The notes beneath the pieces are model-generated. The model ran no database searches and was not told the DNA's origin. It saw only the letters and a list, made by a program, of their open reading frames with translations. Shown here one piece after another: positions 2,287-32,592 of a stretch of DNA of 64,000 nucleotides. The stretch is from Escherichia coli (GTDB lineage: Bacteria > Pseudomonadota > Gammaproteobacteria > Enterobacterales > Enterobacteriaceae): assembly GCF_044647545.1 (NCBI RefSeq), contig NZ_CP172818.1, one strand, 5' to 3'. The stretch's first letter is position 1; each line of letters begins with the position of its first letter. The position numbers and the translations under genes were made by a program.

Positions 2287-2370
2287 ATGAAAATTATACT
2301 CTGGGCTGTATTGATTATTTTCCTGATTGGGCTACTGGTGGTGACTGGCGTATTTAAGATGATATTTTAA
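2287..2370 (+). CDS. yohP: Small membrane protein YohP (27 aa)
   Basis: ATG at 2287, translation MKIILWAVLIIFLIGLLVVTGVFKMIF, stop TAA at 2368-2370; single hydrophobic helix; not in the ORF track because below its size cutoff. Confidence 0.8.
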   Translation: MKIILWAVLIIFLIGLLVVTGVFKMIF

Positions 2371-2742
2371 AATTAATTAATGTCATCAGGTCCGAAAATA
2401 ACGAGAATATTTCAGTCTCTCATCCTGTTGCGCTCCTGTCATGTGCATTGCTTCATATAATCACTGGCGCAAGGAGCGCGCAGGGGGCGGCCAATCGCCG
2501 CCGCCCCCTGCACCCCCGGGCTCTGGCGAACAAAATCGCCGCTGCGCGGTGCCCTCGGCTTATCCCTTACGGCTACCGGGTCGGGCGCGAGGTAACATCC
2601 CTGTAAAACGCGCCCTCAGCCCACATCCATGTGGGCTGCCCCGGCCTTCAGGGAACGCCTCGGCAATTTTGACGCCACCAAACAACCGTGCGGCCTATTG
2701 ATAAAGAGCTAACACATTGTCAAAAAACATCACTATGGTTTT

Positions 2743-3690
2743 TTAGAGTTTATCGATATCAATTGCCTGAATAGCCCTTGCAATATCAGGGGAATTATTC
2801 AACATCCGAACATGCTGAAATAATTCTGTTGCTTCATCGTATTCTTTACGCAAATAACTCAACCACTGTTTAATCCGCGCTACGTGATATAACCCGGTAT
2901 CGCCCTGCTTTTCCAGACGGGTATATTTTTGCAGCAAAGCAACTACCTCCGGCCATGGCATTCGCGGTTCGTTATATTTTACCACCCGGCTCAGGTTGGG
3001 AATATTGAGCGCCCCGCGACCAATCATCACTGCGTCGCATCCGCTGATCGTCATGCATTGTTGCGCACTCTGCCAGTCCCAGATTTCACCGTTGGCAATC
3101 ACCGGAATATTCAGCCGCTGGCGAATCTCGCCAATCGCCTGCCAGTCAATATGCTCCGCGCGGTAACCCTGCTCTTTTGTCCGCCCATGTACTACCAGCT
3201 CCGTAGCGCCAGCCTGTTGCACCGCATCGGCGATTTCAAATTTCTTCTCACCGCTGTCCCAGCCCAGACGCACTTTTACGCTGACGGGCAAATGCGCCGG
3301 TACAGCTTCGCGCATCGCTTTTGCACCCTGATAGATGAGTTCAGGATCTTTGAGTAACGTCGCCCCACCGCCGCTACCGTTAACCGTTTTCGACGGGCAG
3401 CCGCAATTGAGATCCACGCCCCAGGAACCTAACTCGACCGCACGGGCGGCATTCTCTGCCAGCCATTGTGGGAACTGACCTAACAACTGCACGCGCACCA
3501 GCGTACCAGATGGTGTCCGGCTGGCGTTTTGTAGCTCAGGGCAAATGCGATGAAAGACTTTTACCGGCAGCAGTTGATCCACCACGCGGACAAACTCGGT
3601 GATGCACAGATCGTAGTCGTTAACTTCGGTCAGTAATTCCCGCACCAGAGAGTCAAGTACACCCTCCATCGGAGCCAGTAACACACGCAT
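2743..3690 (-). CDS. dusC: tRNA-dihydrouridine synthase C
   Basis: Track ORF 2743..3756 trimmed to [13 protein letters not shown] start, giving 315 aa; Dus family TIM-barrel signature. Confidence 0.92.
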
Positions 3691-3892
3691 ATCATCACCC
3701 GCAAAAAAATGAGGCGCTATGTTAGCGCCTATGGTCAGCGGATTAAAGGTCTGCAAAGAGGGATTGCTGCAAACTGCAATCCCTCTCTATGCTTGATGTA
3801 TGCCTGAGTTCGCTGCTCATTGCGTAATGCCCGGGAGCGAAAAAATAAGCGCTGATTTCTTAATGTGATCGGTAGCACGTTTTACGAATTAA

Positions 3893-5019
<1,127 letters not shown>

Positions 5020-5023
5020 AATT

Positions 5024-5059
5024 TGCGATGCGTCGCGCATTTTTGATGTAAGTTTCACG
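5024..5059 (+). promoter_or_regulatory. cdd promoter tandem CRP sites (TGCGATGCGTCGCGCA at 5024-5039 and TGATGTAAGTTTCACG at 5044-5059), with a candidate -10 CATAAT at 5065-5070
   Basis: Two TGTGA-N6-TCACA-like palindromes spaced about 20 bp apart upstream of cdd; matches the known CRP/CytR-regulated cdd promoter architecture. Confidence 0.6.
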
Positions 5060-5148
5060 CGTTGCATAATTAATGAGATTCAGATCACATATAAAGCCAT
5101 AACGGGTTCGTAAACTGTTATCCCATTACATGATTATGAGGCAACGCC

Positions 5149-7144
<1,996 letters not shown>

Positions 7145-7337: not shown

Positions 7338-8576
7338 ATGCCGCAACAAAATTATCTGGATGAACTCACTCCGGCTTTTACGCCTTTACTGGCGATTAAA
7401 GAAGCCTCTCGCTGTTTATTATGTCATGACGCCCCCTGTAGTCAGGCTTGCCCGGCACAGACCGATCCAGGGAAATTTATCCGCTCAATTTATTTTCGTA
7501 ATTTTAAAGGTGCTGCCGAGACGATTCGCGAAAATAATGCTTTAGGTGCTGTATGCGCCAGAGTGTGCCCGACGGAGAAATTATGCCAAAGCGGTTGTAC
7601 CCGTGCCGGTGTTGATACTCCCATTGATATCGGTCGCTTACAGCGTTTTGTTACTGATTTTGAACAACAAACTGGGATGGAAATTTATCAGCCCGGTACT
7701 AAAACGCTCGGCAAAGTCGCGATTATTGGCGCGGGTCCTGCCGGATTGCAGGCCAGTGTGACACTGACAAACCAGGGTTATGACGTCACGATCTATGAGA
7801 AAGAAGCACAACCCGGTGGCTGGTTGCGTAACGGCATTCCGCAATTCCGGTTACCGCAATCAGTACTGGATGCAGAAATCGCCCGTATTGAAAAAATGGG
7901 CGTGACCATTAAATGCAATAACGAAATCGGTAACACACTCACCCTGGAGCAGCTGAAAGCGGAAAACCGCGCGGTACTGGTCACCGTGGGGTTATCGAGC
8001 GGTTCGGGGCTACCACTGTTTGAGCATAGCGACGTTGAGATTGCCGTCGACTTCCTGCAACGTGCACGACAGGCGCAAGGCGATATCAGCATTCCACAAA
8101 GCGCATTAATTATCGGCGGCGGTGATGTCGCGATGGACGTAGCCAGCACGCTGAAAGTTCTCGGCTGTCAGGCAGTAACTTGCGTAGCGCGTGAAGAGTT
8201 AGATGAGTTTCCGGCAAGCGAAAAAGAGTTTGCCAGCGCCCGGGAGCTGGGCGTTTCGATCATTGATGGATTCACGCCAGTAGCCGTGGAAGGCAATAAA
8301 GTCACGTTTAAGCATGTACGGTTACCGGGCGAACTGACGATGGCGGCAGATAAAATTATTCTCGCCGTCGGTCAGCATGCCAGACTGGATGCCTTTGCGG
8401 AGTTAGAGCCGCAGCGTAACACCATCAATACACAAAATTACCAGACCCGCGATCCGCAAGTCTTTGCTGCTGGCGATATTGTTGAGGGGGACAAAACCGT
8501 GGTCTATGCCGTGAAAACCGGGAAAGAAGCCGCCGAGGCGATTCATCACTATTTAGAGGGAGCTTGCTCATGTTAA
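7338..8576 (+). CDS. preT: NAD-dependent dihydropyrimidine dehydrogenase subunit PreT
   Basis: 412 aa; Fe-S cysteine cluster and GAGPAG FAD/NAD-binding motif. Confidence 0.93.
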
Positions 8577-9805
8577 CGAAAGATCTTTCGATTACTTTTT
8601 GCGGCGTGAAGTTTCCCAACCCGTTCTGCCTCTCTTCTTCGCCGGTAGGCAACTGCTATGAGATGTGTGCCAAAGCCTACGACACTGGCTGGGGCGGCGT
8701 GGTGTTTAAAACGATCGGCTTTTTTATCGCCAACGAAGTCTCGCCGCGTTTTGATCATCTGGTGAAAGAAGATACCGGTTTTATCGGCTTCAAAAATATG
8801 GAGCAGATTGCTGAACATCCGTTGGAAGAGAATCTGGCCGCCCTGCGTCGGCTGAAAGAAGATTACCCGGACAAAGTATTGATCGCTTCAATCATGGGCG
8901 AAAATGAGCAGCAATGGGAAGAGCTGGCGCGTCTGGTGCAAGAAGCTGGCGCGGATATGATCGAGTGTAACTTCTCCTGTCCGCAAATGACTTCTCATGC
9001 GATGGGTAGCGATGTCGGGCAAAGCCCGGAGCTGGTAGAAAAATATTGTCGGGCAGTAAAACGTGGTTCCACGCTGCCAATGCTGGCGAAGATGACGCCG
9101 AATATCGGTGATATGTGCGAAGTGGCGCTGGCGGCGAAGCGCGGCGGCGCAGATGGCATTGCGGCGATTAACACCGTTAAATCCATCACCAATATCGATC
9201 TTAATCAGAAAATCGGTATGCCGATCGTTAACGGTAAATCGAGTATTTCCGGATATTCCGGTAAAGCGGTAAAACCGATCGCCCTGCGCTTCATTCAGCA
9301 AATGCGTACCCATCCAGAGCTGCGCGATTTCCCGATCAGCGGTATCGGCGGTATTGAAACCTGGGAAGATGCGGCGGAGTTTTTATTGCTCGGTGCAGCG
9401 ACGTTGCAGGTGACCACCGGCATTATGCAGTACGGGTATCGGATAGTGGAAGATATGGCGAGCGGGTTGTCGCATTATCTCGCCGATCAGGGATTTGATT
9501 CGTTGCAGGAGATGGTAGGTCTGGCGAATAACAATATTGTCCCGGCGGAAGATTTAGACCGCAGTTATATTGTCTATCCCCATATCAATCTCGATAAATG
9601 TGTTGGCTGTGGACGCTGTTATATTTCCTGTTACGACGGCGGTCACCAGGCGATGGAATGGAGCGAGAAAACCCGTACACCGCATTGTAATACCGAGAAA
9701 TGTGTGGGTTGCCTGCTTTGTGGTCACGTCTGCCCGGTGGGTTGTATTGATCTCGGAGAAGTGAAGTTTAAGAAAGGCGAGAAAGAACACCCGGTAACGT
9801 TGTAG
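8570..9805 (+). CDS. preA: NAD-dependent dihydropyrimidine dehydrogenase subunit PreA
   Basis: Start trimmed to ATG at 8570 ([19 protein letters not shown], 411 aa); 7-nt overlap with preT; C-terminal ferredoxin-like Cys motifs. Confidence 0.93.
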
Positions 9806-9855
9806 AACCCGCGTCACATCCGGCATTTGCCCGCCGGAGAATACCCACATTCACA

Positions 9856-10866
9856 TCATTTCTTACGCGCGTATTTCAGTGAATCCAGCGCTACGGCGAA
9901 GATAATAATCGCCCCTTTGATGATGTACTGCCAGTATGGGTTTACGCCGATATACGTCAGGCCATAGTTGATGACGGTAAAAATAATTACCCCGGTCACC
10001 ACGCCAATCACCGTCCCCACACCGCCGCTGAACGATACGCCGCCTACCACGCACGCCGCGATAGCATCCAGCTCATACATAAAGCCGAGGTTATTGGTGG
10101 CTGAGCCGATACGTCCGGCTTCTAACATCCCGCCGAAGGCATAGAACACACCAGACAACGCGTAGATCATCAGCAGGTTCAGGCCGACGTTGACACCAGA
10201 TACTTTCGCCGCTTCCGGGTTACCGCCAATGGCAAAAATGTTCTTACCGAAGCGGGTTTTGTTCCACAACACCCAGACGAACGCCACCGCAATCAACGCG
10301 TAGAAGGTGATGTAAGAGAGACGGAAACTCCCCAGCGCGACAAAGCCCTGAGCAAAGGTAGAGAAGCCACTGTCGAAACCAGAAATCGGCGACGCCCCGA
10401 CAAAGTCGTAATAGAGCGAGTTGATGCCATAGACGATGATCATCGTGCCGAGCGTGGTAATGAACGGCGTCACGTTGAGATAAGCGATAATCAGGCCGTT
10501 GATCAAACCGATCACCGCACCAATGGCACAGACAATCAGAATAACCAGCGCAATCGGCATCGTCGCCATTTCCGGGAACACTTTGTTGGCGTTATCCATG
10601 GACTGCAATAACGTCGCCGCTACTACTGCCGCCAGCCCCACCTGGCGACCTGCAGAAAGGTCGGTCCCCTGGGTGACAATTAACCCTGCCACACCAAGCG
10701 CGATAATAATACGCACCGATGACTGGGTGAGAATATTACTTAAGTTCAACAGACTTAAAAATGTTGGGTCCTGGAAAATAATAATCGCCAGCAAAACTAA
10801 AAGAACGACGTAAATACCGCCTTCTTTCAGGTAAGTAAGAAAACTTTTCTTATTTAACGCACTCAT
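9856..10866 (-). CDS. mglC: Galactose/methyl-galactoside ABC transporter permease
   Basis: 336 aa, MSALNKKSFLTYLKEGGIYVVLLVL. Confidence 0.95.
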   Translation of the reverse strand: MSALNKKSFLTYLKEGGIYVVLLVLLAIIIFQDPTFLSLLNLSNILTQSSVRIIIALGVAGLIVTQGTDLSAGRQVGLAAVVAATLLQSMDNANKVFPEMATMPIALVILIVCAIGAVIGLINGLIIAYLNVTPFITTLGTMIIVYGINSLYYDFVGASPISGFDSGFSTFAQGFVALGSFRLSYITFYALIAVAFVWVLWNKTRFGKNIFAIGGNPEAAKVSGVNVGLNLLMIYALSGVFYAFGGMLEAGRIGSATNNLGFMYELDAIAACVVGGVSFSGGVGTVIGVVTGVIIFTVINYGLTYIGVNPYWQYIIKGAIIIFAVALDSLKYARKK

Positions 10867-10881
10867 GGGAAGCCCCTAATC

Positions 10882-12402
10882 TTAAAGGTGCAAAGACGCA
10901 AGACGCAGAATTTCGCTTTGCGTTGTTGTTTTTGTATCGACAATTCCGGAAACGAGACCATTGCTCATGACCAGAATACGGTCTGTTATCCCTAACAACT
11001 CTGGCATTTCGGAGGAGATAATAATAATCCCCTTGCCTTTCTTCGCCAGTTCGGCAATTAACTGATAAATCTCAAACTTAGCCCCAACATCAATACCGCG
11101 CGTCGGTTCATCGAGCATTAATATTTCTGGTTGCGTTAACAGCCAGCGACCAATAATCACTTTTTGCTGATTACCACCGGAGAGCGAACCTATTTGCGTC
11201 CGATGACCTGGCGTTTTTACCCGCATCGAATCAATGACCCACTGGGTATCACTTTTCATCCGCGAATTATCCAGCAAGCCAACTTTATTTTTGTAGTTGC
11301 GAATATTGGAAATTAACGAGTTAAAACCGATATCCAGATAGGCATAAATTCCCGTTGAGCGGCGCTCCTCAGTTACCAGAGCAAATCCGTGGTTTATGGC
11401 TTCATTGGCATTATGGTTATTGATCTTTTTGCCGTGCAACGTAATGGTGCCAGCCGATTTCTCGCGAATACCAAATAACGTCTCAACAATATCGGTACGT
11501 TTCGCCCCCACCAGCCCGGCAATACCGAGGATCTCCCCTTTATGCAGATCAAACGAGACATCACGGATCGACGGCTGGCGCAGTGACGTCAGGTTACGCA
11601 CCTCGAGGATGACTTCGCCCGGCTTGTTTTCTTTGTCAGGGAAACGCTGGTTAAGAGAACGCCCAACCATCATGGCGATGATCTTGTCCATCGTCAGCCC
11701 TGCCAGCGGTTCGGTAGCGATCCACTGACCGTCGCGCAATACGGTAACTTCATCACATAACTGGAAGATTTCTTCCATTTTATGCGAGATATAAACAATA
11801 CCGCAGCCGCGCTCTTTTAATTTACGAATAATAGTGAACAGATGATTGACCTCTTTTTCGGTTAACGAAGAAGTCGGTTCATCCATAATCACAATTTTCG
11901 CGTTATAGGAAAACGCTTTGGCAATTTCGATCATCTGCATTTGCGAAACGGATAATGTGCCGACGCGTGCACGCGGATCGATATCAATATCCAGTTCATC
12001 AAAAATCGCTTTGGTTTCGCGGTACATTTTGTCTTGATCGACAAACATGCCTTTGGTGGGATATCGCCCCAGCCACATGTTATCCATCACCGAACGTTGT
12101 AATACCAGATTTAACTCCTGGTGTACCATCGAAATACCATTTTCCAGCGCTTCTTTGGCAGAATGGAAATCGATCTCTTTACCCTGGAATAAAATGGTGC
12201 CGGAGTCTTTTTGATAAATACCAAACAGGCATTTTAATAATGTCGATTTTCCTGCACCATTTTCCCCCATTAATGCATGGATAGAATGTGGTCGGACTTT
12301 TAAATTAACGTTATCAAGTGCCTTAACACCAGGAAAAGACTTGTTGATACCGCTCATTTCCAACAAGTATTCCCCGGAAGACGGAGTCGTTGAGCTGACC
12401 AT
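10882..12402 (-). CDS. mglA: Galactose/methyl-galactoside ABC transporter ATP-binding protein (duplicated ABC domains)
   Basis: 506 aa, [29 protein letters not shown]; Walker [10 protein letters not shown]. Confidence 0.95.
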
Positions 12403-23949: not shown

Positions 23950-24807
23950 ATGAAATACATTGGAGCGCACGTTAGTGCTGCTGGCGGTCTGGCAAATGCC
24001 GCAATTCGCGCCGCCGAAATCGACGCAACCGCGTTTGCCTTGTTCACCAAAAACCAACGTCAGTGGCGTGCCGCACCGCTCACGACGCAAACCATCGATG
24101 AATTCAAAGCCGCCTGTGAAAAATATCACTACACATCGGCGCAAATTCTTCCCCACGACAGTTATCTGATTAACCTCGGACATCCGGTCACTGAAGCTCT
24201 GGAAAAATCGCGCGATGCCTTTATAGATGAAATGCAGCGTTGCGAACAGCTGGGGCTTTCTTTGCTCAACTTCCACCCTGGCAGCCATCTGATGCAGATT
24301 TCAGAAGAGGATTGCCTTGCGCGTATTGCCGAATCCATCAACATTGCGCTGGATAAAACTCATGGTGTGACAGCGGTGATTGAAAACACCGCCGGTCAGG
24401 GCAGTAACTTAGGGTTTAAATTCGAACATCTCGCGGCGATTATCGACGGCGTGGAAGATAAATCCCGCGTCGGCGTCTGCATTGATACCTGCCATGCTTT
24501 CGCTGCCGGGTATGATTTGCGTACTTCTGCCGAATGCGAGAAAACGTTCGCGGATTTTGCCCGTATTGTCGGCTTTAAGTATCTGCGCGGGATGCACCTT
24601 AACGATGCGAAAAGCACCTTTGGCAGCCGCGTTGACCGCCATCATAGCCTCGGTGAAGGCAATATCGGTCATGATGCGTTCCGCTGGATCATGCAGGACG
24701 ACCGTTTCGACGGAATTCCGCTGATCCTTGAAACCATCAACCCGGATATCTGGGCAGAAGAGATCGCCTGGCTGAAAGCGCAACAAACTGAAAAAGCGGT
24801 AGCCTGA
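23950..24807 (+). CDS. nfo: Endonuclease IV (AP endonuclease)
   Basis: 285 aa, [39 protein letters not shown]. Confidence 0.96.
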
Positions 24808-24809
24808 AG

Positions 24810-25898
24810 ATGAATAACCGGGAGAAGGAGATCCTTGCAATATTAAGGCGTAACCCGCTGATTCAGCAGAACGAAATTGCGGATATGCTGCAAATCAGCC
24901 GTTCGCGTGTTGCAGCGCATATTATGGATTTAATGCGCAAAGGACGGATTAAAGGCAAAGGTTACATTCTCACCGAGCAGGAATACTGCGTAGTGGTGGG
25001 GACAATCAATATGGATATTCGCGGGATGGCGGATATCCGTTACCCGCAAGCGGCTTCTCATCCCGGTACCATTCATTGCTCGGCAGGCGGCGTTGGACGC
25101 AATATCGCCCACAATCTGGCGCTGTTAGGCCGCGACGTTCATTTGCTTTCAGTGATTGGCGATGACTTTTATGGCGAAATGCTCCTGGAAGAAACGCGCC
25201 GCGCCGGCGTGAATGTCTCCGGCTGCGTTCGTTTACATGGTCAAAGCACATCGACGTATCTGGCAATTGCCAATCGAGACGATCAAACCGTGCTGGCGAT
25301 TAACGATACCCATCTGCTGGATCAGTTGACACCGCAACTACTGAACGGGTCGCGCGATTTACTTCGTCATGCGGGCGTGGTACTGGCAGATTGTAACCTG
25401 ACAGCCGAGGCGCTGGAATGGGTCTTTACCCTCGCTGATGAAATCCCGGTGTTTGTCGATACCGTTTCAGAATTCAAAGCGGGCAAAATCAAACACTGGC
25501 TGGCGCATATTCACACCCTGAAACCCACTTTACCGGAGCTGGAAATTTTATGGGGACAGGCGATCACCAGCGATGCTGACCGTAATGCCGCAGTGAATGC
25601 ATTACATCAGCAAGGTGTTCAGCAACTGTTTGTTTATTTGCCCGATGAGTCAGTTTATTGCAGCGAAAAGGATGGAGAACAATTTTTGCTGACCGCACCA
25701 GCGCATACGACAGTAGACAGTTTTGGTGCTGACGATGGTTTTATGGCGGGTCTGGTATATAGCTTTCTGGAGGGAAACAATTTCCGTGACAGCGCCCGTT
25801 TTGCGATGGCCTGCGCAGCAATTTCACGCGCCAGCGGCAGCTTAAACAACCCTACCCTGTCTGCCGATAACGCGCTTTCATTAGTGCCGATGGTGTAA
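24810..25898 (+). CDS. yeiI: Putative PfkB-family nucleoside/sugar kinase with N-terminal HTH domain, YeiI
   Basis: 362 aa; N-terminal about 50 residues (MNNREKEILAILRRNPLIQQNEIADMLQISRSRVAAHIMDLMRKG) look like a winged helix-turn-helix; remainder aligns by eye with PsuK in this window (GGVGRNIA, LKPN/TLKP motifs). Confidence 0.88.
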   Translation: MNNREKEILAILRRNPLIQQNEIADMLQISRSRVAAHIMDLMRKGRIKGKGYILTEQEYCVVVGTINMDIRGMADIRYPQAASHPGTIHCSAGGVGRNIAHNLALLGRDVHLLSVIGDDFYGEMLLEETRRAGVNVSGCVRLHGQSTSTYLAIANRDDQTVLAINDTHLLDQLTPQLLNGSRDLLRHAGVVLADCNLTAEALEWVFTLADEIPVFVDTVSEFKAGKIKHWLAHIHTLKPTLPELEILWGQAITSDADRNAAVNALHQQGVQQLFVYLPDESVYCSEKDGEQFLLTAPAHTTVDSFGADDGFMAGLVYSFLEGNNFRDSARFAMACAAISRASGSLNNPTLSADNALSLVPMV

Positions 25899-25905
25899 CA
25901 ATGTT

Positions 25906-25939
25906 GCCGGATTCGACGCTTGACCGCGTCTTATCCGGC
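25906..25939. repeat. REP-like palindromic element
   Basis: GCCGGATTCGACGCTTGACCGCGTCTTATCCGGC between convergent yeiI and nupX. Confidence 0.6.
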
Positions 25940-25953
25940 TCATAACTCGCGCA

Positions 25954-27204
25954 CTACGCTAAACCAATAAAGAACCCGGCAATGGTGGCACTCATCAGGT
26001 TAGAAAGTGTCGCCGCCGCCAGCGCGCGTAAACCAAGCTGGGCGATTTCCGGCGCACGGTGTGGCGCAACCGCAGAAAACGCCCCCACCACCACCCCGAT
26101 AGAACCAAAGTTAGCGAAACCGCACAACGCGAAGGAAATAATCGCCACGGTTTTAGCATCCAGAGTGCCAGCTGTTTGCAGATAAGGTGAGAAATTGAGG
26201 TAAGCGACAAATTCATTTATTGCCAGTTTCTGTCCAATCAAACTCCCGGCAAGATTCGCATCACTCCAGTCAACACCCATTACCCACGCCAGTGGGGCCA
26301 GCAGGTAACCTAAAATGGACTCCAGCGAGGCATGTTCAAAACCAAACCAGCCGCCAACGCCGCCGATAATACCGTTAATCAACGCAATTATTGCAACAAA
26401 TGCCATCACCACTGTCGCCACACCTGCGGCGATTTTCAGCCCGGTCATTGCCCCTGTCGCAGCGGCTTCAATAATGCTTTTTGGCGGTGTTTCGGTGAAA
26501 GAGAGGTTATTAAAGGAAACCTGCGAAGATTCCGTGGCCGGACTTAACAGGCGAGCAAATAAGATCCCGCCAGGGATCGCCATTAACGATGCCGCCAGCA
26601 AATATTCCACAGGTACGCCCAGTGCGGCGTAACCAATCATTGTCGAACCAGCAATCGAGGCCATGCCACTACAAATCGCTGTAAATAATTCATTGCGATT
26701 CAGCCGATCGATAAAGGGTTTGACGATTGCCGGAATTTCGTTTTGCCCGAGGAAAATGGTAGTGACCGCGACGAATGACTCGATCTTGCTGATATTTAAT
26801 GCTTTCTGGAAGATACCGCCGAGAATGCGAATTAAGATCCCCATCACACCGATGTAGTAGAGAATACTCACCAGCGCGGTGACGAAGATAATTGCCGGTA
26901 ATACTCTGAAACCAAAGATAAATCCTGCACCATCAAACAGCGTGTCCATTTTCGGCCCGACCAGCGAACCGAAGATAAATGCGCTACCCGCGTCGCTGTA
27001 CGCCATCACTTTATGGACGCCAAAAGCGACTTTTTCAGCGACCCAACGCCCTGGCGGTAACCAAAGCATAATGCCGCCAATCACGACCTGTAACACTAAC
27101 GCCGCGCCAACGGTACGCAGGCTGATCCTCTTCTTGTTTACTGACAGCAAAAATGCAATTGCCAGCAATACCACCATTCCCAGAACACTTCTCATGACAT
27201 CCAT
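25954..27204 (-). CDS. nupX: NupC-family nucleoside permease NupX
   Basis: 416 aa, MDVMRSVLGMVVLLAIAFLLSVNKK; close paralog of PsuT in this window. Confidence 0.93.
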   Translation of the reverse strand: MDVMRSVLGMVVLLAIAFLLSVNKKRISLRTVGAALVLQVVIGGIMLWLPPGRWVAEKVAFGVHKVMAYSDAGSAFIFGSLVGPKMDTLFDGAGFIFGFRVLPAIIFVTALVSILYYIGVMGILIRILGGIFQKALNISKIESFVAVTTIFLGQNEIPAIVKPFIDRLNRNELFTAICSGMASIAGSTMIGYAALGVPVEYLLAASLMAIPGGILFARLLSPATESSQVSFNNLSFTETPPKSIIEAAATGAMTGLKIAAGVATVVMAFVAIIALINGIIGGVGGWFGFEHASLESILGYLLAPLAWVMGVDWSDANLAGSLIGQKLAINEFVAYLNFSPYLQTAGTLDAKTVAIISFALCGFANFGSIGVVVGAFSAVAPHRAPEIAQLGLRALAAATLSNLMSATIAGFFIGLA

Positions 27205-27303
27205 AGTTATTATCTCTTCATGTCATTTTGGGCGACGGCTTTCTGCCCATCAGAAATCGCCGGGCCTGCATCTTGCGATACTGTCCCGGCTTGTTATCAA
27301 CAC

Positions 27304-28245
27304 TTAATGGGTTTTGATGTAGCCGCGCACGCACTCTTCGACTAATCCCCAGAACCAGTCAGTATCAATAGTGATGCCGACTTTGGTATTGGCGGGCTTG
27401 CCAAGAACGCCCAGCTCGTCGCAGACGGTACGCCCATAGCAAGGGCCACTGTTAACATCCACTTCGACGTACATCTCCTGGGTTTTAATGCCATCTGGGT
27501 TAATCAGATAACCGATGCAGGTGGCGTCATGCACCGGGCCGCCAGCCAGGCCGTAGTTTTCGAACTGGGTTTTGAGAGTGAAGTTCATGATGTCGCTGAA
27601 CAGCTCTCCGGCAGGGCCGCCTGCCCTTTCCATTCGTGCAATCACGTCCGGGGTGCAAACGGTCTGGTTGGTGAGATCGAGGCCCATCATTACTAATGGA
27701 ACGCCGGAGGTGAACACCACACGTGCCGCTTCCGGATCAGCAAAGATGTTGAACTCGGCAGATGGCGTGAAGTTGCCAGTACCGTAAGCGCCGCCCATCA
27801 GTACAATTTCACGGATTTTCGGCAGAATTGCGGGTTGCATCCGCATTGCCACCGCGATGTTTGAAAGCGGACCAACCGGCACCAGAGTGATATCGCCATC
27901 GCTTGCCATCAGGGTATCGATGATATATTTCACCGCATGGGTGTTTTCTGCCTGACGAGTCAGCGGTTCGAATACCGGACCATCCAGCCCGGTTTCACCG
28001 TGAATATTATCGGCAACGATTTGTTGACGCATAATGGGTTGCGACATCCCCGCATAAACCGGAACATTAATCTCCAGTTTCTGGCAAACATTCAGGCCAT
28101 TAATTAATGTTTTATCGAGGGTTTGATTCCCCGCCACAATAGTGATACCTAATAAATCAATCGCCGGATGTTTCGCTGCCATCATCATTGCAATAGCATC
28201 ATCATGACCCGGATCACAATCCAGAATAATTTTTCTTTTTTCCAT
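27304..28245 (-). CDS. rihB: Pyrimidine-specific ribonucleoside hydrolase RihB
   Basis: 313 aa, [23 protein letters not shown] (DXDXXXDD nucleoside hydrolase motif). Confidence 0.94.
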
Positions 28246-28413
28246 TGTTTATTTCCTCTGTTTCCAGTTGCGTTATTTTTTCTACAGCAAAGAAAATTCG
28301 ACCGGGCCGATGATTGAATCTTAACAACAGCGTACGTATGCTAAATATGAGAAATCTCATAGCGGATAAACATCGTGAAAGAAATCCACAATAATGATCT
28401 TAAGCAGCAATTG

Positions 28414-29073
28414 ATGAGTGAATCCGCGTTTAAGGATTGCTTTTCAACGGATGTTTCAGCCGATACGCGGCTGTTTCATTTTTTAGCGCGTGACTACATA
28501 GTGCAGGAAGGGCAACAGCCGTCCTGGCTGTTTTACCTGACGCGAGGCCGCGCCAGGCTTTACGCCACGCTAGCTAATGGTCGCGTGTCGCTGATCGATT
28601 TCTTTGCCGCGCCCTGTTTTATTGGTGAGATTGAGTTAATCGATAAAGACCATGAACCGCGTGCGGTACAGGCTATTGAAGAGTGTTGGTGCCTTGCGCT
28701 CCCTATGAAACATTACCGTCCGCTGTTATTAAACGACACGCTATTTTTACGAAAACTTTGCGTCACCTTAAGTCATAAAAATTATCGTAATATTGTTTCT
28801 TTAACTCAGAATCAATCATTTCCGTTAGTGAATCGCCTGGCAGCATTTATATTACTCTCGCAGGAAGGTGATCTTTATCACGAAAAACATACCCAGGCGG
28901 CAGAGTATTTAGGTGTTACTTATCGTCACTTGCTATATGTGATCGCTCAACTCATTCACGACGGTTTATTAATTAAAAGTAAGAAAGGGTATTTAATTAA
29001 AAACAGAAAGCAGTTGTCAGGACTGGCGCTGGAGATGGACCCGGAGAATAAATTCTCCGGGATGATGCAGTAA
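28414..29073 (+). CDS. yeiL: CRP/FNR-family transcriptional regulator YeiL
   Basis: Track ORF 28375..29073 trimmed to [12 protein letters not shown] (219 aa); C-terminal HTH. Confidence 0.85.
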
Positions 29074-29097
29074 AAATTAATCTGCAATAGCGCGATT

Positions 29098-29133
29098 GCC
29101 GGATGCAACACTTAATAAGCGCGTACATCCGGC
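29098..29133. repeat. REP-like palindromic element
   Basis: GCCGGATGCAACACTTAATAAGCGCGTACATCCGGC between convergent yeiL and psuT; 8-bp GCCGGATG/CATCCGGC arms. Confidence 0.55.
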
Positions 29134-29141
29134 AATGAAAC

Positions 29142-30392
29142 TCAAGCTAAACCAATAAAGAACCCGGCAATGGTCGCGCTCATCAGGTTGGAAAGCGTTG
29201 CTGCTGCCAGCGCCCGTAAACCAAGCTGAGCGATTTCCGGTGCGCGTTTTGGCGAAATAGCCGAAAATGCCCCAACGACAACACCGATAGAACCAAAGTT
29301 AGCAAAACCACAAAGCGCAAAGGAGATAATCGCAATGGTTTTCACTTCCAGCGTGCCGCCCGTTTGCAGGTATGGGGAGAAACTCAGGTAAGCGACGAAT
29401 TCGTTAATCGCCAGTTTCTGCCCAATCAGGCTACCCGCAAGATTGGCATCACTCCAGTCCACACCCATGATCCACGCCAGCGGTGCCAGCACATAGCCGA
29501 AAATACTTTCCAGAGAGGCATTGGCGAAACCAAACCAGCCGCCGATTCCGCCGATAATGCCGTTGATCAGCGCAATAATTGCGACAAACGCCATTACTAC
29601 CGTTGCTACACCAGCGGCGATTTTCAGCCCGGTCATCGCACCGCTCGCCGCTGCTTCGATAAAGCTTTTTGGCGGCGTTTCGCTGAACGATAAATTTTCA
29701 AATGTGACCTGCGAAGGCTCGGTTGCCGGGCTAAGAATACGTGCAAACAAAATCCCGCCAGGGATCGCCATCAGCGATGCCGCTAACAGGTAGTCAATTG
29801 GTACGCCCATTCCGGCATAACCGATCATCATCGAACCCGCAATGGACGCCATCCCGCTACAAATTGCAGTAAACAACTCGTTGCGATTCATGCGATCGAT
29901 AAACGGTTTAACGATCGCAGGGATCTCATTTTGCCCGAGGAAAATAGTGGTAACCGCAACAAAAGATTCGATTTTGCTGATGTTGAGAGCTTTCTGAAAA
30001 ATACTGCCAAGAATGCGGATTAGCAGCCCCATCACGCCAATGTAGTACAGCAGACTGATGAGCGCAGTAACGAAAATAATCGCCGGAAGTACGCGAAAGG
30101 CGAAGATAAAACCCGCACCGTCAAACAAGACATCCATTTTCGGCCCAACCAGCGAACCAAAAATGAAGGCGCTACCGGCATCACTGTAAGACATCACTTT
30201 ATGAACGCCTAATGCCGCCAGTTCAACTGCCCATTTTCCCGGTGGGAAGTAGAGCATGATGCCACCAATAGCGATTTGCAGCAGCAGCGCGGCTCCAACC
30301 GTGCGTAAACTGATGCTCTTTTTATTCACTGATAACAGAAATGCTATTACCAGTAACACCACCATCCCCACAACACTTCTCATTATATCCAT
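29142..30392 (-). CDS. psuT: NupC-family pseudouridine/nucleoside transporter PsuT (YeiM)
   Basis: 416 aa, MDIMRSVVGMVVLLVIAFLLSVNKK; near-identical in length and sequence to NupX. Confidence 0.92.
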   Translation of the reverse strand: MDIMRSVVGMVVLLVIAFLLSVNKKSISLRTVGAALLLQIAIGGIMLYFPPGKWAVELAALGVHKVMSYSDAGSAFIFGSLVGPKMDVLFDGAGFIFAFRVLPAIIFVTALISLLYYIGVMGLLIRILGSIFQKALNISKIESFVAVTTIFLGQNEIPAIVKPFIDRMNRNELFTAICSGMASIAGSMMIGYAGMGVPIDYLLAASLMAIPGGILFARILSPATEPSQVTFENLSFSETPPKSFIEAAASGAMTGLKIAAGVATVVMAFVAIIALINGIIGGIGGWFGFANASLESIFGYVLAPLAWIMGVDWSDANLAGSLIGQKLAINEFVAYLSFSPYLQTGGTLEVKTIAIISFALCGFANFGSIGVVVGAFSAISPKRAPEIAQLGLRALAAATLSNLMSATIAGFFIGLA

Positions 30393-30484
30393 AATGATTT
30401 CCCCTTCATACCAGTAAACCCGACGTCAGCGCCAGGTTCTGGTATGTATGATCATACGGGCGACGGCTTTCTGCCCGTCAGAAA

Positions 30485-31423
30485 TTAACCCGCGAGACGC
30501 TGGTATTCTTTGGCAATTTCGCTCGCCAGAATGGCGTTGTTGAACACCAGTTGGATGTTGGATTTCAGACTGTCACCGCCGGTCAGTTCTGCAACACGAG
30601 CCAGTAGGAACGGTGTACTTTCTTTACCAATAACGCCCTGCTCTTCGGCTTCGGCGACGGCCTGATCTATGGCTGCATTAATTGACTCCTCCGCCATCGC
30701 AAACTGCTCCGGGATCGGATTCGCCACTACCAGACCACCGTTCAAACCGGTTTGCCATTTCACTGCCATTGCACGAGCGATTTCTGTGGCACTATCAAGG
30801 CGAATGCTGACCTCAAACGGGCTGGTACGGCAGAAAAACGCAGGCAGCGCTTTTGTCTGATAGCCAATTAACGGCACACCGAAGGTTTCTAAATATTCTG
30901 TTGTTAATCCTAAATCGAGAATGGATTTTGCACCGGCACAAACAACGGTGACATTAGTATTTGCCAGTTCTTGCAAATCGGCAGAAATATCGAAGGTATG
31001 TTCCGCCCCGCGATGCACACCACCAATTCCCCCGGTGGCAAATACTTTAATTCCGGCAAGCGCCGCAATAATCATCGTTGAAGCCACAGTGGTTGCGCCA
31101 TTTTTTCCGGCGGCAACAACAAAAGGTAAATCGCGACGACTAACTTTGGTCACGTTATGCCCTTCGCGACCCAGCAATTCAATTTCTTCTTTGCTTAAAC
31201 CCACTTTCATCACGCCGCCAATAATGGCGATAGTGGCAGGTACAGCGCCCTGTTTACGAATAGTTTCTTCAACTTCAATTGCGGTCTGGGCATTTTGTGG
31301 GAACGGCATCCCATGAGAAATAATGGTCGATTCCAGCGCCACAACCGGTTTTTTGTTTTTTAAAGCGTCCTGCACTTCCGGGGAAATTTGTAATAATTCA
31401 GGGGAAATTTTTAATTCAGACAT
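30485..31423 (-). CDS. psuG: Pseudouridine-5'-phosphate glycosidase PsuG (YeiN)
   Basis: 312 aa, MSELKISPELLQISPEVQDALKNKKPVVALESTIISHGMPFPQN. Confidence 0.94.
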   Translation of the reverse strand: MSELKISPELLQISPEVQDALKNKKPVVALESTIISHGMPFPQNAQTAIEVEETIRKQGAVPATIAIIGGVMKVGLSKEEIELLGREGHNVTKVSRRDLPFVVAAGKNGATTVASTMIIAALAGIKVFATGGIGGVHRGAEHTFDISADLQELANTNVTVVCAGAKSILDLGLTTEYLETFGVPLIGYQTKALPAFFCRTSPFEVSIRLDSATEIARAMAVKWQTGLNGGLVVANPIPEQFAMAEESINAAIDQAVAEAEEQGVIGKESTPFLLARVAELTGGDSLKSNIQLVFNNAILASEIAKEYQRLAG

Positions 31424-32352
31424 TCTGCGTTCTCCACTAACGATATAACGTTGGCAATCGATAAATCGGGGTTATTGGTGTATTCACAGGAGAGCGCCAT
31501 TGACGAACATCCCTGTGCGAAACGAACGGATTCGGCAAACGGCATTCCGTCTACCCAACACGAAGCAAGTCCCGCCATCATGGCATCGCCCGCTCCGGTA
31601 ACATTAATAACATTGGTTTTGATCGGCGCAGACCAGCCACTTTCACCGCTGATATCGCTGTAATAAACGCCATCGCCGCCCATGCTCAATACCAGTCGGT
31701 TCAGCCCATGTTGATGGAACCAGGCAGCAACTTTTGCCACATCTTCACGCCCTGACAGCGCAATCCCACTCAGGGTTTCCGCTTCAAGGCGGTTTGGCTT
31801 GAGAGTGTGGATTTGATTTAGACGGTCGCGCACTTTGACACATTTCCACGCAGAAACCGGATCGACAAATACGGGTACGTTGGCGGCATTATCCAGAATC
31901 CATGCCAGTGCCTCTTCACTGATATTACAGTCCGCGACAATGACCTTTGCCCTCTGAATAAATTCACGATGCTGTGCGAGATATTCAGCTGTAATAGCGT
32001 TGCTAATATTCATGTCATTTATAGCAACTAGCATTTCACCGGTATTATCGAGTAATGATAAATAGCTCGACGTATTTTCTCCCGGCACAATCAGGCATTT
32101 ATCGACATAAACACCAGATTGATTGGTTTGCGTTAGCAACGATTGACCATAAAAATCACTGCCTACTGCGCTCAGTAGCCAGGCTTTATTCCCCAGCAAC
32201 GCCAGGTTTTGTGCAATATTGCGCCCTACTCCACCAGGCGTAAACTTTATTTTACCTGGATTTGAATCCGCATAATTTAATGATTCATGTGAATATCCGG
32301 CGACATCAATATTCGCCGAACCTATAATTACGACATAATCCTTTTCGCGCAT
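31411..32352 (-). CDS. psuK: Pseudouridine kinase PsuK (YeiC), PfkB family
   Basis: 313 aa, MREKDYVVIIGSANIDVAG; 13-nt overlap with psuG. Confidence 0.93.
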   Translation of the reverse strand: MREKDYVVIIGSANIDVAGYSHESLNYADSNPGKIKFTPGGVGRNIAQNLALLGNKAWLLSAVGSDFYGQSLLTQTNQSGVYVDKCLIVPGENTSSYLSLLDNTGEMLVAINDMNISNAITAEYLAQHREFIQRAKVIVADCNISEEALAWILDNAANVPVFVDPVSAWKCVKVRDRLNQIHTLKPNRLEAETLSGIALSGREDVAKVAAWFHQHGLNRLVLSMGGDGVYYSDISGESGWSAPIKTNVINVTGAGDAMMAGLASCWVDGMPFAESVRFAQGCSSMALSCEYTNNPDLSIANVISLVENAECLN

Positions 32353-32592
32353 AGCACGTCCTCTGGTAAAAAATTACCAACCCTGTCAATCCACAAGAAT
32401 ATAGATACTGCAAAGACGGTTTAAACATGTGTTCATATTTAAACATGTGCTCATAGTATGCATGTTTTACGTAAAGTAAATTACCGCCAGAGAGGCAAAA
32501 TGGGCAGATTTGAGCAGGCTCACAAAACGCGATTAAATGCCTGAATTATAAAAACGGGGAATTTGTGACGGGAGGCACAGAACAGGAACAAT

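Follow-up and report, generated by a model that had tools for sequence, protein, structure and literature searches.

Escherichia coli carries, between nfo and fruA, a cluster of seven genes (yeiI, nupX, rihB, yeiL, psuT, psuG and psuK) encoding nucleoside enzymes and transporters together with the proteins YeiI and YeiL, which we have analyzed in a 64,000-nucleotide stretch of contig NZ_CP172818.1 (assembly GCF_044647545.1), hereafter called the window. In published structures of the pseudouridine kinase PsuK, Asn14, Asp16, Gly41 and Asn45 contact the ribose of pseudouridine, and Tyr97, Asn112 and Met114 line the base; the hallmark base contacts are made by Asn143, Lys170 and Ser30 of the partner subunit, through which the dimer closes on binding, and Asp256 acts as the catalytic base (PMC9061257, PMC9247573). 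A psuK mutant is unable to use pseudouridine, according to a 2025 paper that also counts "YeiI = pseudouridine kinase" among the errors of machine-learning annotation, since PsuK supplies the activity. As for the transporters, NupX takes up uridine and cytidine, and PsuT showed uptake of neither of these nor of xanthosine, its name as a pseudouridine transporter resting on association only (PMC11241209). RegulonDB gives YeiL one target only (PMC9308461). The K-12 annotation labels YeiL an activator, and our literature search found no assigned function for YeiI, no psu regulator and no YeiL targets beyond YeiL itself.

Several transcription factors are derived from or fused to metabolic enzymes, among them the ROK repressors NagC and Mlc (as compared with the ROK sugar kinases), BirA, NadR and PutA. 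They use a metabolic-enzyme fold as the ligand sensor of a regulator of the matching pathway, as we propose for YeiI. Unlike these proteins, YeiI would sense through a PfkB (ribokinase-like) fold, and its DNA-binding part is a winged helix-turn-helix (HTH) of the Lrp/AsnC type; to our knowledge, no regulator combining the two has been characterized.

The region is 99.7% identical to several complete E. coli chromosomes, where the same RefSeq gene names are used, and its order in the window is yeiE, yeiH, nfo, yeiI (+), nupX and rihB (−), yeiL (+), psuT, psuG and psuK (−), fruA (Table 1). The seven genes lie where the initial annotation had placed them, and that annotation also correctly described YeiI as a PfkB homologue of PsuK with an extra N-terminal HTH and YeiL as a CRP/FNR-type regulator encoded between two enzyme-plus-transporter units. 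Our analysis departs from it in how the genes are paired. We consider it fairly probable that the locus holds two separate regulons, one nested in the other, in which yeiI belongs with psuKGT and the two are split by a mobile yeiL–rihB–nupX cassette bringing its own regulator. The genes of the locus have long been known and are well annotated; the predicted regulator assignments appear to be new.

The pairing follows from which genes travel together. We located counterparts of the window's proteins in 80 loci that encode relatives of YeiI, one genome per species; for the Enterobacteriaceae, counts refer to the 22 loci whose flanks reach far enough. All 22 have yeiI together with psuT–psuG–psuK, and in 19 of them yeiI lies directly against psuT, with nupX, rihB and yeiL absent (E. 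albertii, Citrobacter, Enterobacter, Kluyvera, Buttiauxella, Raoultella, Klebsiella, Leclercia, Kosakonia and Phytobacter ursingii are included). Only three, namely E. coli, Phytobacter diazotrophicus and Entomohabitans, have the three-gene insert, which a YeiL-based lookup also found in one strain of Citrobacter amalonaticus. Beyond this family, Affinibrenneria (Pectobacteriaceae) has yeiI next to a CNT gene (psuT), psuG and psuK in a different neighbourhood from which nfo is absent. More than 40 other non-Enterobacteriaceae loci have a single HTH-PfkB gene with psuG directly behind it in the same orientation and, in many cases, a CNT gene after that (Serratia, Yersinia, Hafnia, Photorhabdus, Xenorhabdus, Morganella, Gilliamella, Lonepinella, Shewanella, Paludibacterium, Vogesella and Rhodoferax); apart from HTH-PfkB, these loci outside the Enterobacteriaceae share no conserved regulator gene.

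The cassette genes keep different company. Salmonella arizonae has nfo, a frameshifted nupX with rihB, yeiL and fruA in that order, and both yeiI and psuKGT are absent; Hafnia alvei has yeiL divergent from rihB and a CNT gene at an unrelated locus. Enterococcus has a yeiL homologue (57–59% identical) divergent from a rihB homologue (75%), which is followed by genes for a PfkB kinase and a Bmp/ABC nucleoside transporter. Every lookup in Hafnia, Enterococcus, Citrobacter and S. arizonae paired rihB with yeiL, which makes yeiL the partner of rihB and not, as first described, a mere spacer between units. The psu genes also occur in mobile contexts: in Salmonella diarizonae, psuK–psuG–psuT and a truncated yeiI lie beside TraT, FinO and Hha genes in a plasmid-like setting (positions 8001–11818 of the fetched locus), and in Aeromonas jandaei psuK–psuG–psuT lies near an integrase and a WYL gene. 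These contexts indicate that the pseudouridine operon, too, moves horizontally.

A candidate operator follows the same pairing. Two copies of the palindrome AAACA-NN-TGTTT lie in tandem upstream of the first psu gene, which is psuK in the Enterobacteriaceae and HTH-psuK elsewhere, in 72 of the 80 loci. The distance between the two starts is 18 nt in Enterobacterales and 19 nt in Shewanella and the Betaproteobacteria. A weight matrix trained without the E. coli sites was scanned across the window, with 20 shuffled windows as a control. Its two best matches were the proximal (20.1 bits) and distal (16.3 bits) sites upstream of psuK, the former scoring above all 20 shuffled windows, and the scan gave no comparable match near rihB, nupX, yeiL or nfo. 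The operator was recovered in independent loci as well (Affinibrenneria, another Yersinia, another Shewanella and C. amalonaticus). It is absent in S. arizonae and at the Hafnia cassette locus, and also upstream of HTH-less psuK–psuG–CNT in Aeromonas and one Pasteurellaceae genome, where no yeiI-like gene lies nearby; S. diarizonae, with its truncated yeiI, has only degenerate sites. Across the HTH-PfkB family, the HTH residues S30, R31, S32, A35, I38 and M39 of the recognition helix are invariant, which would match the constant core of the operator motif.

The sites also lie where a repressor might be expected to act. The predicted psuK promoter consists of a −10 hexamer, TACTAT (32453–32458), and a −35 hexamer, TTTACT (32475–32480), 16 nt further upstream. 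The distal operator overlaps the conserved −10-like TACTAT, and the tandem sites together cover the −10 and the predicted start region. Further upstream is a CRP-like site, TGTGAGCCTGCTCAAA, at 32509–32524 (TGTGA-N6-TCAAA); the hexamers and a TGTGA-N6-TCAnA site are conserved across Enterobacteriaceae upstream regions. Such a predicted layout is typical of repression by occlusion plus catabolite control. Separately, a small hairpin, TTGGTAA-TTTT-TTACCAG, lies at 32363–32380 (−), immediately before the ribosome-binding site of psuK; in Citrobacter this position is occupied by TGGCAAG...TTGCCA, apparently through a compensatory change.

YeiI itself combines a winged HTH (HTH_24, residues 1–48, E = 2.3e-10; HTH_11, E = 2.8e-4; residues 1–49 overall) with a PfkB domain (Pfam PF00294, residues 58–348, E = 6.1e-68). 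It aligns with PsuK over 307 residues at 40% identity (E = 1e-77), the start of PsuK coinciding with the end of the post-HTH linker in YeiI. Like PsuK and PUKI (PDB 7VKP and related entries; Arabidopsis PUKI), it has the PfkB fold, Ser30, Asn143, Lys170 and Asp256. Indeed, residues N14, D16, S30, G41, N45, Y97, N112, N143, K170 and D256 of PsuK are retained in 14 of 14 YeiI orthologues, all of which thus carry the PUKI hallmark residues (Ser/Thr30, Asn143 and Lys170; PMC9061257) and the catalytic Asp256. Unlike PsuK and PUKI, YeiI has the N-terminal winged HTH and the fixed differences D29A, M114T, N250D, T252F and G255D, the last of which lies within the GAGD motif. The resulting GADD is found in 14 of 14 YeiI sequences, as against GAGD in 14 of 14 PsuK and 16 of 17 HTH-PsuK sequences (the remaining one has GGGD). 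Similarly, DSNPG is present in 14 of 14 PsuK sequences and kept in the HTH-PsuK fusions, the corresponding motif in YeiI being (A/V/S)-S-(N/H)-PG. YeiI stays below the cutoff of the pseudouridine kinase equivalog NF007355 (257.9 versus 540 bits), which PsuK, a match to PDB 7VKP and related entries, passes at 716 bits; YeiI instead matches its own NCBIfam equivalog, NF007416, named "sugar kinase", at 813.6 bits. A structure search returned no solved structure that includes the HTH-PfkB architecture. Comparison of two deeply diverged E. coli alleles of yeiI gives a ratio of nonsynonymous to synonymous divergence (dN/dS) of 0.04 in the HTH and 0.10 in the kinase domain, and such purifying selection on each indicates that both domains are functional.

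The HTH-PsuK fusions of Yersinia, Serratia, Photorhabdus, Pasteurellaceae, Shewanella and Betaproteobacteria share with YeiI the HTH_24 plus PfkB architecture, a near-invariant recognition helix and the tandem palindrome upstream of the psu operon. They differ from it in keeping GAGD and DSNPG and in being the only kinase gene at the locus, directly upstream of psuG, whereas yeiI is a separate gene beside an HTH-less psuK. The fusions bear the annotation PfkB carbohydrate kinase or pseudouridine kinase; probably they act as regulators as well as enzymes. We suggest, tentatively and at somewhat less than even odds, that HTH-PsuK and YeiI represent an undescribed class of one-component regulators in which a PfkB dimer is the sensor, the pseudouridine-induced closure known from PsuK crystals would be the allosteric switch moving two winged HTHs on and off a tandem operator, and the Enterobacteriaceae would have split kinase from repressor. 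Xenorhabdus has a second HTH-PfkB paralogue (~355 aa, with GAGD and DSNPG kept) that has no adjacent psuG and at best one degenerate operator-like site.

YeiL, the regulator of the cassette, has a cNMP_binding domain (PF00027, E = 6.3e-14) and an HTH_Crp_2 domain (PF13545, E = 1.2e-5), and scores 414.7 bits against the cutoff of 180 of its NCBIfam subfamily model. The spacer between yeiL and rihB holds the palindrome TATGAGAAATCTCATA, which is identical in six Enterobacterales and has the form TATGAGAATTCTCA in Enterococcus; in the window it is unique, even with up to three mismatches allowed. The yeiL–rihB pair together with this shared box in Enterococcus implies transfer between phyla; in Enterococcus malodoratus, the divergent pair and its palindromic box occupy positions 4945–6672 of the fetched locus. 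On the rihB-sense strand of seven of seven genomes, Enterococcus included, the box and a TAnnnT hexamer are separated by exactly 22 nt, which places the box center ~42 nt upstream of the predicted rihB start. YeiL would in this respect resemble FNR/CRP class II activators, whose sites lie at −41.5, and its predicted site has an FNR-like 5-N4-5 form (ATGAG-N4-CTCAT), with a half-site unlike those of FNR (TTGAT) and CRP (TGTGA). We predict that YeiL activates rihB–nupX through this conserved box. The box also overlaps the predicted yeiL promoter, TTGAAT-17-TATGCT (28314–28342), and its start, so autoregulation is expected. RefSeq starts yeiL at a GTG (28375; 232 aa) only 13 nt past the box, and the K-12 start is 39 nt downstream (28414; 219 aa); the shorter form is more plausible if the yeiL transcript begins inside the box.

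From these patterns of gene content, paralogy, co-occurrence, motif conservation and motif position we infer that YeiI and YeiL bind DNA, whether they activate or repress and what the inducer is, and arrive at the following model. The ancestral pseudouridine unit would consist of yeiI plus psuK–psuG–psuT, with YeiI descended from an HTH-PsuK fusion of the kind that forms the first psu operon gene in other Gamma- and Betaproteobacteria. In the Enterobacteriaceae the jobs would be split, HTH-less PsuK being the enzyme and YeiI, with its HTH and GADD, the sensor. YeiI is probably a pseudouridine-responsive repressor of psuKGT, a prediction made because the PsuK contact residues are kept, GADD replaces GAGD and the operator tracks the HTH-PfkB gene. 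A YeiI dimer would bind the two tandem palindromes over the psuK promoter and thereby repress psuKGT; pseudouridine in the retained pocket would trigger a PsuK-type dimer closure and release YeiI from DNA, and the CRP-like site would add catabolite control. The mobile yeiL–rihB–nupX cassette would have inserted between yeiI and psuT, and psuT with its leader hairpin would have been duplicated to give nupX, now importing uridine and cytidine for the RihB hydrolase. YeiL would bind the single palindrome in the divergent spacer, at the class II CRP/FNR position, and activate rihB.

Several points weigh against this model. The co-occurrence sample was chosen through YeiI, and the reverse direction rests on a few psuK-first lookups. 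Promoter hexamers and transcription starts are sequence predictions, and yeiI itself, placed directly against nfo, has no operator in front of it. The sign of the YeiL effect on each gene is uncertain because its box overlaps the predicted yeiL promoter. As to ancestry, neighbor-joining trees recover a YeiI clade (98% bootstrap) and a PsuK clade (100%), but YeiI is never placed as sister to PsuK (0 of 100 bootstraps), and the support for its branching point reaches only 56 of 100; with this placement, an acquired second copy is as possible as local duplication with subfunctionalization. Finally, the PROSITE PfkB signature tolerates D at the GADD position, and with its catalytic Asp kept and its kinase domain constrained YeiI may still be an enzyme, or bifunctional.

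The best surviving alternative is accordingly that YeiI serves chiefly as an enzyme and is another kinase acting on pseudouridine or on a close relative such as a methylated pseudouridine or another C-nucleoside, with an HTH that is vestigial or serves fine-tuning and with palindromes that belong to another factor. Conservation of the catalytic Asp and of all substrate-contact residues, the dN/dS of the kinase domain and the fact that the nearest solved relatives are active pseudouridine kinases all speak for it. We nevertheless regard it as unlikely. Constraint within the protein is strongest on the HTH, many residues of which are invariant from Shewanella to E. coli, and G255D falls within a conserved motif; the operator tracks the HTH-PfkB gene at loci that conserve no other regulator gene; and the reported inability of the psuK mutant to use pseudouridine argues that YeiI is not a redundant kinase (2025 paper).

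Much less probable still is the proposal of the initial annotation, by which yeiI, rihB and nupX form a second kinase–hydrolase–transporter salvage unit, possibly for a modified nucleoside, in parallel with psuKGT. The three genes are indeed physically adjacent in E. coli, YeiI is homologous to nucleoside kinases, and NupX is a paralogue of PsuT. However, yeiI is convergent with nupX and abuts nfo. Co-occurrence profiling does not find the genes co-conserved, yeiI being without rihB–nupX in 19 of the 22 Enterobacteriaceae loci and rihB–nupX without yeiI in S. arizonae and Hafnia, and the operator linked to the HTH family is found only upstream of psuK. The proposed unit fails because yeiI travels with psuKGT and yeiL with rihB. 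The statement that its substrate is not established is outdated for RihB, which scores 723.6 bits on the NCBIfam equivalog NF007417 (cutoff 459) and is named ribosylpyrimidine nucleosidase there, and for NupX, which carries ordinary uridine and cytidine; nor is the substrate specificity of NupX identical to that of PsuT, the uptake of the two being different (PMC11241209). The functions of RihB and NupX fit the canonical pyrimidine route, and we found no evidence for one dedicated to modified nucleosides.

NupX and PsuT, both of 416 residues, align without gaps at 88% identity and 95% similarity. They were initially described as near-identical across most of their length, which is too strong: the DNA is 78.7% identical, with 52% identity at third codon positions, a synonymous divergence (dS) of ~1.39 and a dN/dS of 0.055. 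Identity is even along the gene, at ~80% (0.63–0.83 per 90-nt window) with no conversion tract. Such values point to an old duplication under strong purifying selection. Like the CNT transporters NupC and vcCNT, both proteins pass the NupC/NupG CNT model TIGR00804 (NupX at 499.7 and PsuT at 514.7 bits; cutoff 442), and they fall into the vcCNT-related group, not the NupC group; what we take to be the nucleoside-binding motifs of vcCNT are identical between them in the alignment. In the neighbor-joining tree, NupX proteins from six genera (E. coli, C. amalonaticus, S. arizonae, Phytobacter, Entomohabitans and the Hafnia cassette) form one clade with 74% bootstrap. This clade lies inside an Enterobacteriaceae group of PsuT and NupX that is separated with 100% support from the psu-linked transporters of other Enterobacterales; Hafnia's own psu-linked transporter falls in the outgroup. 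The nested position of the NupX clade indicates that nupX was born from an Enterobacteriaceae psuT and that the cassette later moved as a unit, which bears out the earlier suggestion that a duplicated transporter was recruited to a second enzyme. PsuT, unlike NupC/vcCNT-type nucleoside transporters, shows no uptake of uridine or cytidine (PMC11241209). The notion that NupX and PsuT owe their likeness to gene conversion or tandem duplication of recent date in E. coli, and are not two functionally separate transporters, is scarcely credible: their 88% identical proteins of the same length and a stretch of 29 identical nucleotides toward the 3' end could suggest it, but the even identity, third codon positions and dS rule out conversion, the NupX clade spans five further genera (Citrobacter, Salmonella, Phytobacter, Entomohabitans and Hafnia), and the two differ in experimental uptake (PMC11241209).

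The duplicated segment begins exactly on the last base of the psuG stop codon. The 28-nt element ATTTCTGAYGGGCAGAAAGCCGTCGCCC located here upstream of psuT recurs upstream of nupX with 27 of 28 bases matching, although synonymous sites are near saturation, and the copy upstream of nupX marks the 5' boundary of the psuT duplication. The psuG–psuT spacer (~100 nt) is conserved in 15 Enterobacteriaceae sequences, with a consensus fold of −20 kcal/mol. Its hairpin 1, with a 5–6 bp stem and a conserved 11-nt loop, starts on that same last base of the stop codon, and the long hairpin 2 abuts the psuT ribosome-binding site. Only hairpin 1 survives upstream of nupX, and it does so in all nupX lineages. 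The structure may serve as an attenuator, a processing site or a protein site. The covariation term for the leader hairpins is ~0, with a compensatory change in one of 14 pairs, and no Rfam family matches the psuG–psuT or rihB–nupX leaders, the sole match being a weak REP-like one elsewhere.

Within E. coli the locus is variable. The rihB–yeiL pair is present in 5383 of 5426 complete genomes (99%), and nupX is missing from ~991 of 5430 complete records (18%), where a 66-nt remnant is left (for example at positions 2503–2568 of the locus fetched from E. coli CUVET17-1136, matching window 25954–27204); RihB in such strains is without a dedicated transporter. In a rare variant, E. coli CUPS04, a deletion begins within the 3' part of yeiI, extends to the 3' end of psuK (fetched locus 2311–4113) and removes nupX, rihB, yeiL, psuT and psuG. 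Cassette loss by nupX/psuT recombination was not seen in E. coli, the common variant removing nupX alone. A third variant class is only a change in the length of the yeiI/nupX spacer, which is 55 bp in the window and 106 bp in many strains; it mimics a structural variant because megablast alignments split there. Two allele classes of yeiI exist (~80% DNA identity, dS ~1.05), as do two of psuK–psuG–psuT (81–89% identical, psuK dS ~1.3), next to an nfo that is 98.5% identical. Co-evolution of yeiI and psuK alleles in E. coli is ruled out by strain OkiPb01711, which mixes a divergent yeiI with the common psuK allele, so the two sets of allele classes recombine. Only 81 of 5431 E. coli records match the window over the whole region at 99% identity or more.

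At the other end of the locus, the yeiI start codon lies 2 bp past the nfo stop (24805–24812). The gap is constant in every Enterobacteriaceae locus, which suggests co-transcription of yeiI with nfo, a gene of the oxidative-stress response, and a peak from SELEX (systematic evolution of ligands by exponential enrichment) with the RpoD holoenzyme has been assigned to nfo>yeiI (PMC3946193). The features of the region are collected in Table 1.

Table 1. Genes and sequence elements of the yeiI–psuK region (window positions, except where K-12 is stated)
Feature	Position	Strand	Remarks
nfo (endonuclease IV)	23950–24807	+	Context only; in neither module
yeiI (winged HTH plus PfkB, pseudouridine-kinase-like)	24810–25898	+	Pfam, PsuK alignment
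REP-like palindromic element	25892–25940		Convergent yeiI/nupX spacer; weak naRNA4-like match, below Rfam gathering score
nupX (CNT-family nucleoside transporter)	25954–27204	−	psuT paralogue; distal gene of rihB–nupX
28-nt leader element copy (hairpin 1) upstream of nupX	27230–27257	−	ATTTCTGAYGGGCAGAAAGCCGTCGCCC
rihB (pyrimidine-specific ribonucleoside hydrolase)	27304–28245	−	NCBIfam NF007417
Predicted rihB −10 hexamer, TAAGAT	28318–28323	−	22 nt from YeiL box edge
Predicted YeiL box, palindrome TATGAGA-AA-TCTCATA	28346–28361		yeiL/rihB divergent spacer
K-12 counterpart of YeiL box	2255287–2255302 (K-12)
yeiL (CRP/FNR-family regulator)	28375–29073	+	rihB(–nupX) partner
psuT (CNT transporter of pseudouridine operon)	29142–30392	−
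Structured psuG–psuT spacer	30408–30485	−	Hairpin 1, 30458–30485; hairpin 2, 30408–30445
psuG (pseudouridine-5'-phosphate glycosidase)	30485–31423	−
psuK (pseudouridine kinase)	31411–32352	−	No HTH; canonical GAGD
Tandem predicted operators	Proximal, 32421–32436; distal, 32439–32454		Candidate YeiI sites
K-12 counterpart of tandem operators	NC_000913.3 2259365–2259399
Predicted psuK promoter region	32453–32524	−	−10, −35 and CRP-like site, from sequence

The main value of this analysis lies in the re-pairing of the genes, which gives two poorly characterized regulators, YeiI and YeiL, cheaply testable predicted functions and exact K-12 sites. It also explains why the machine-learning label "pseudouridine kinase" is tempting for YeiI and yet probably wrong. 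The locus provides a natural example of a transporter duplicated and captured by an incoming cassette and, if our model holds, of an enzyme–regulator fusion resolved into two genes. Should YeiI indeed sense pseudouridine, it would supply a biosensor part ready for use in pseudouridine-production strains engineered at psuK, psuG and psuT, and if YeiI and the HTH-PsuK proteins do form a sensor class, E. coli would gain a sensor for a modified RNA nucleoside.

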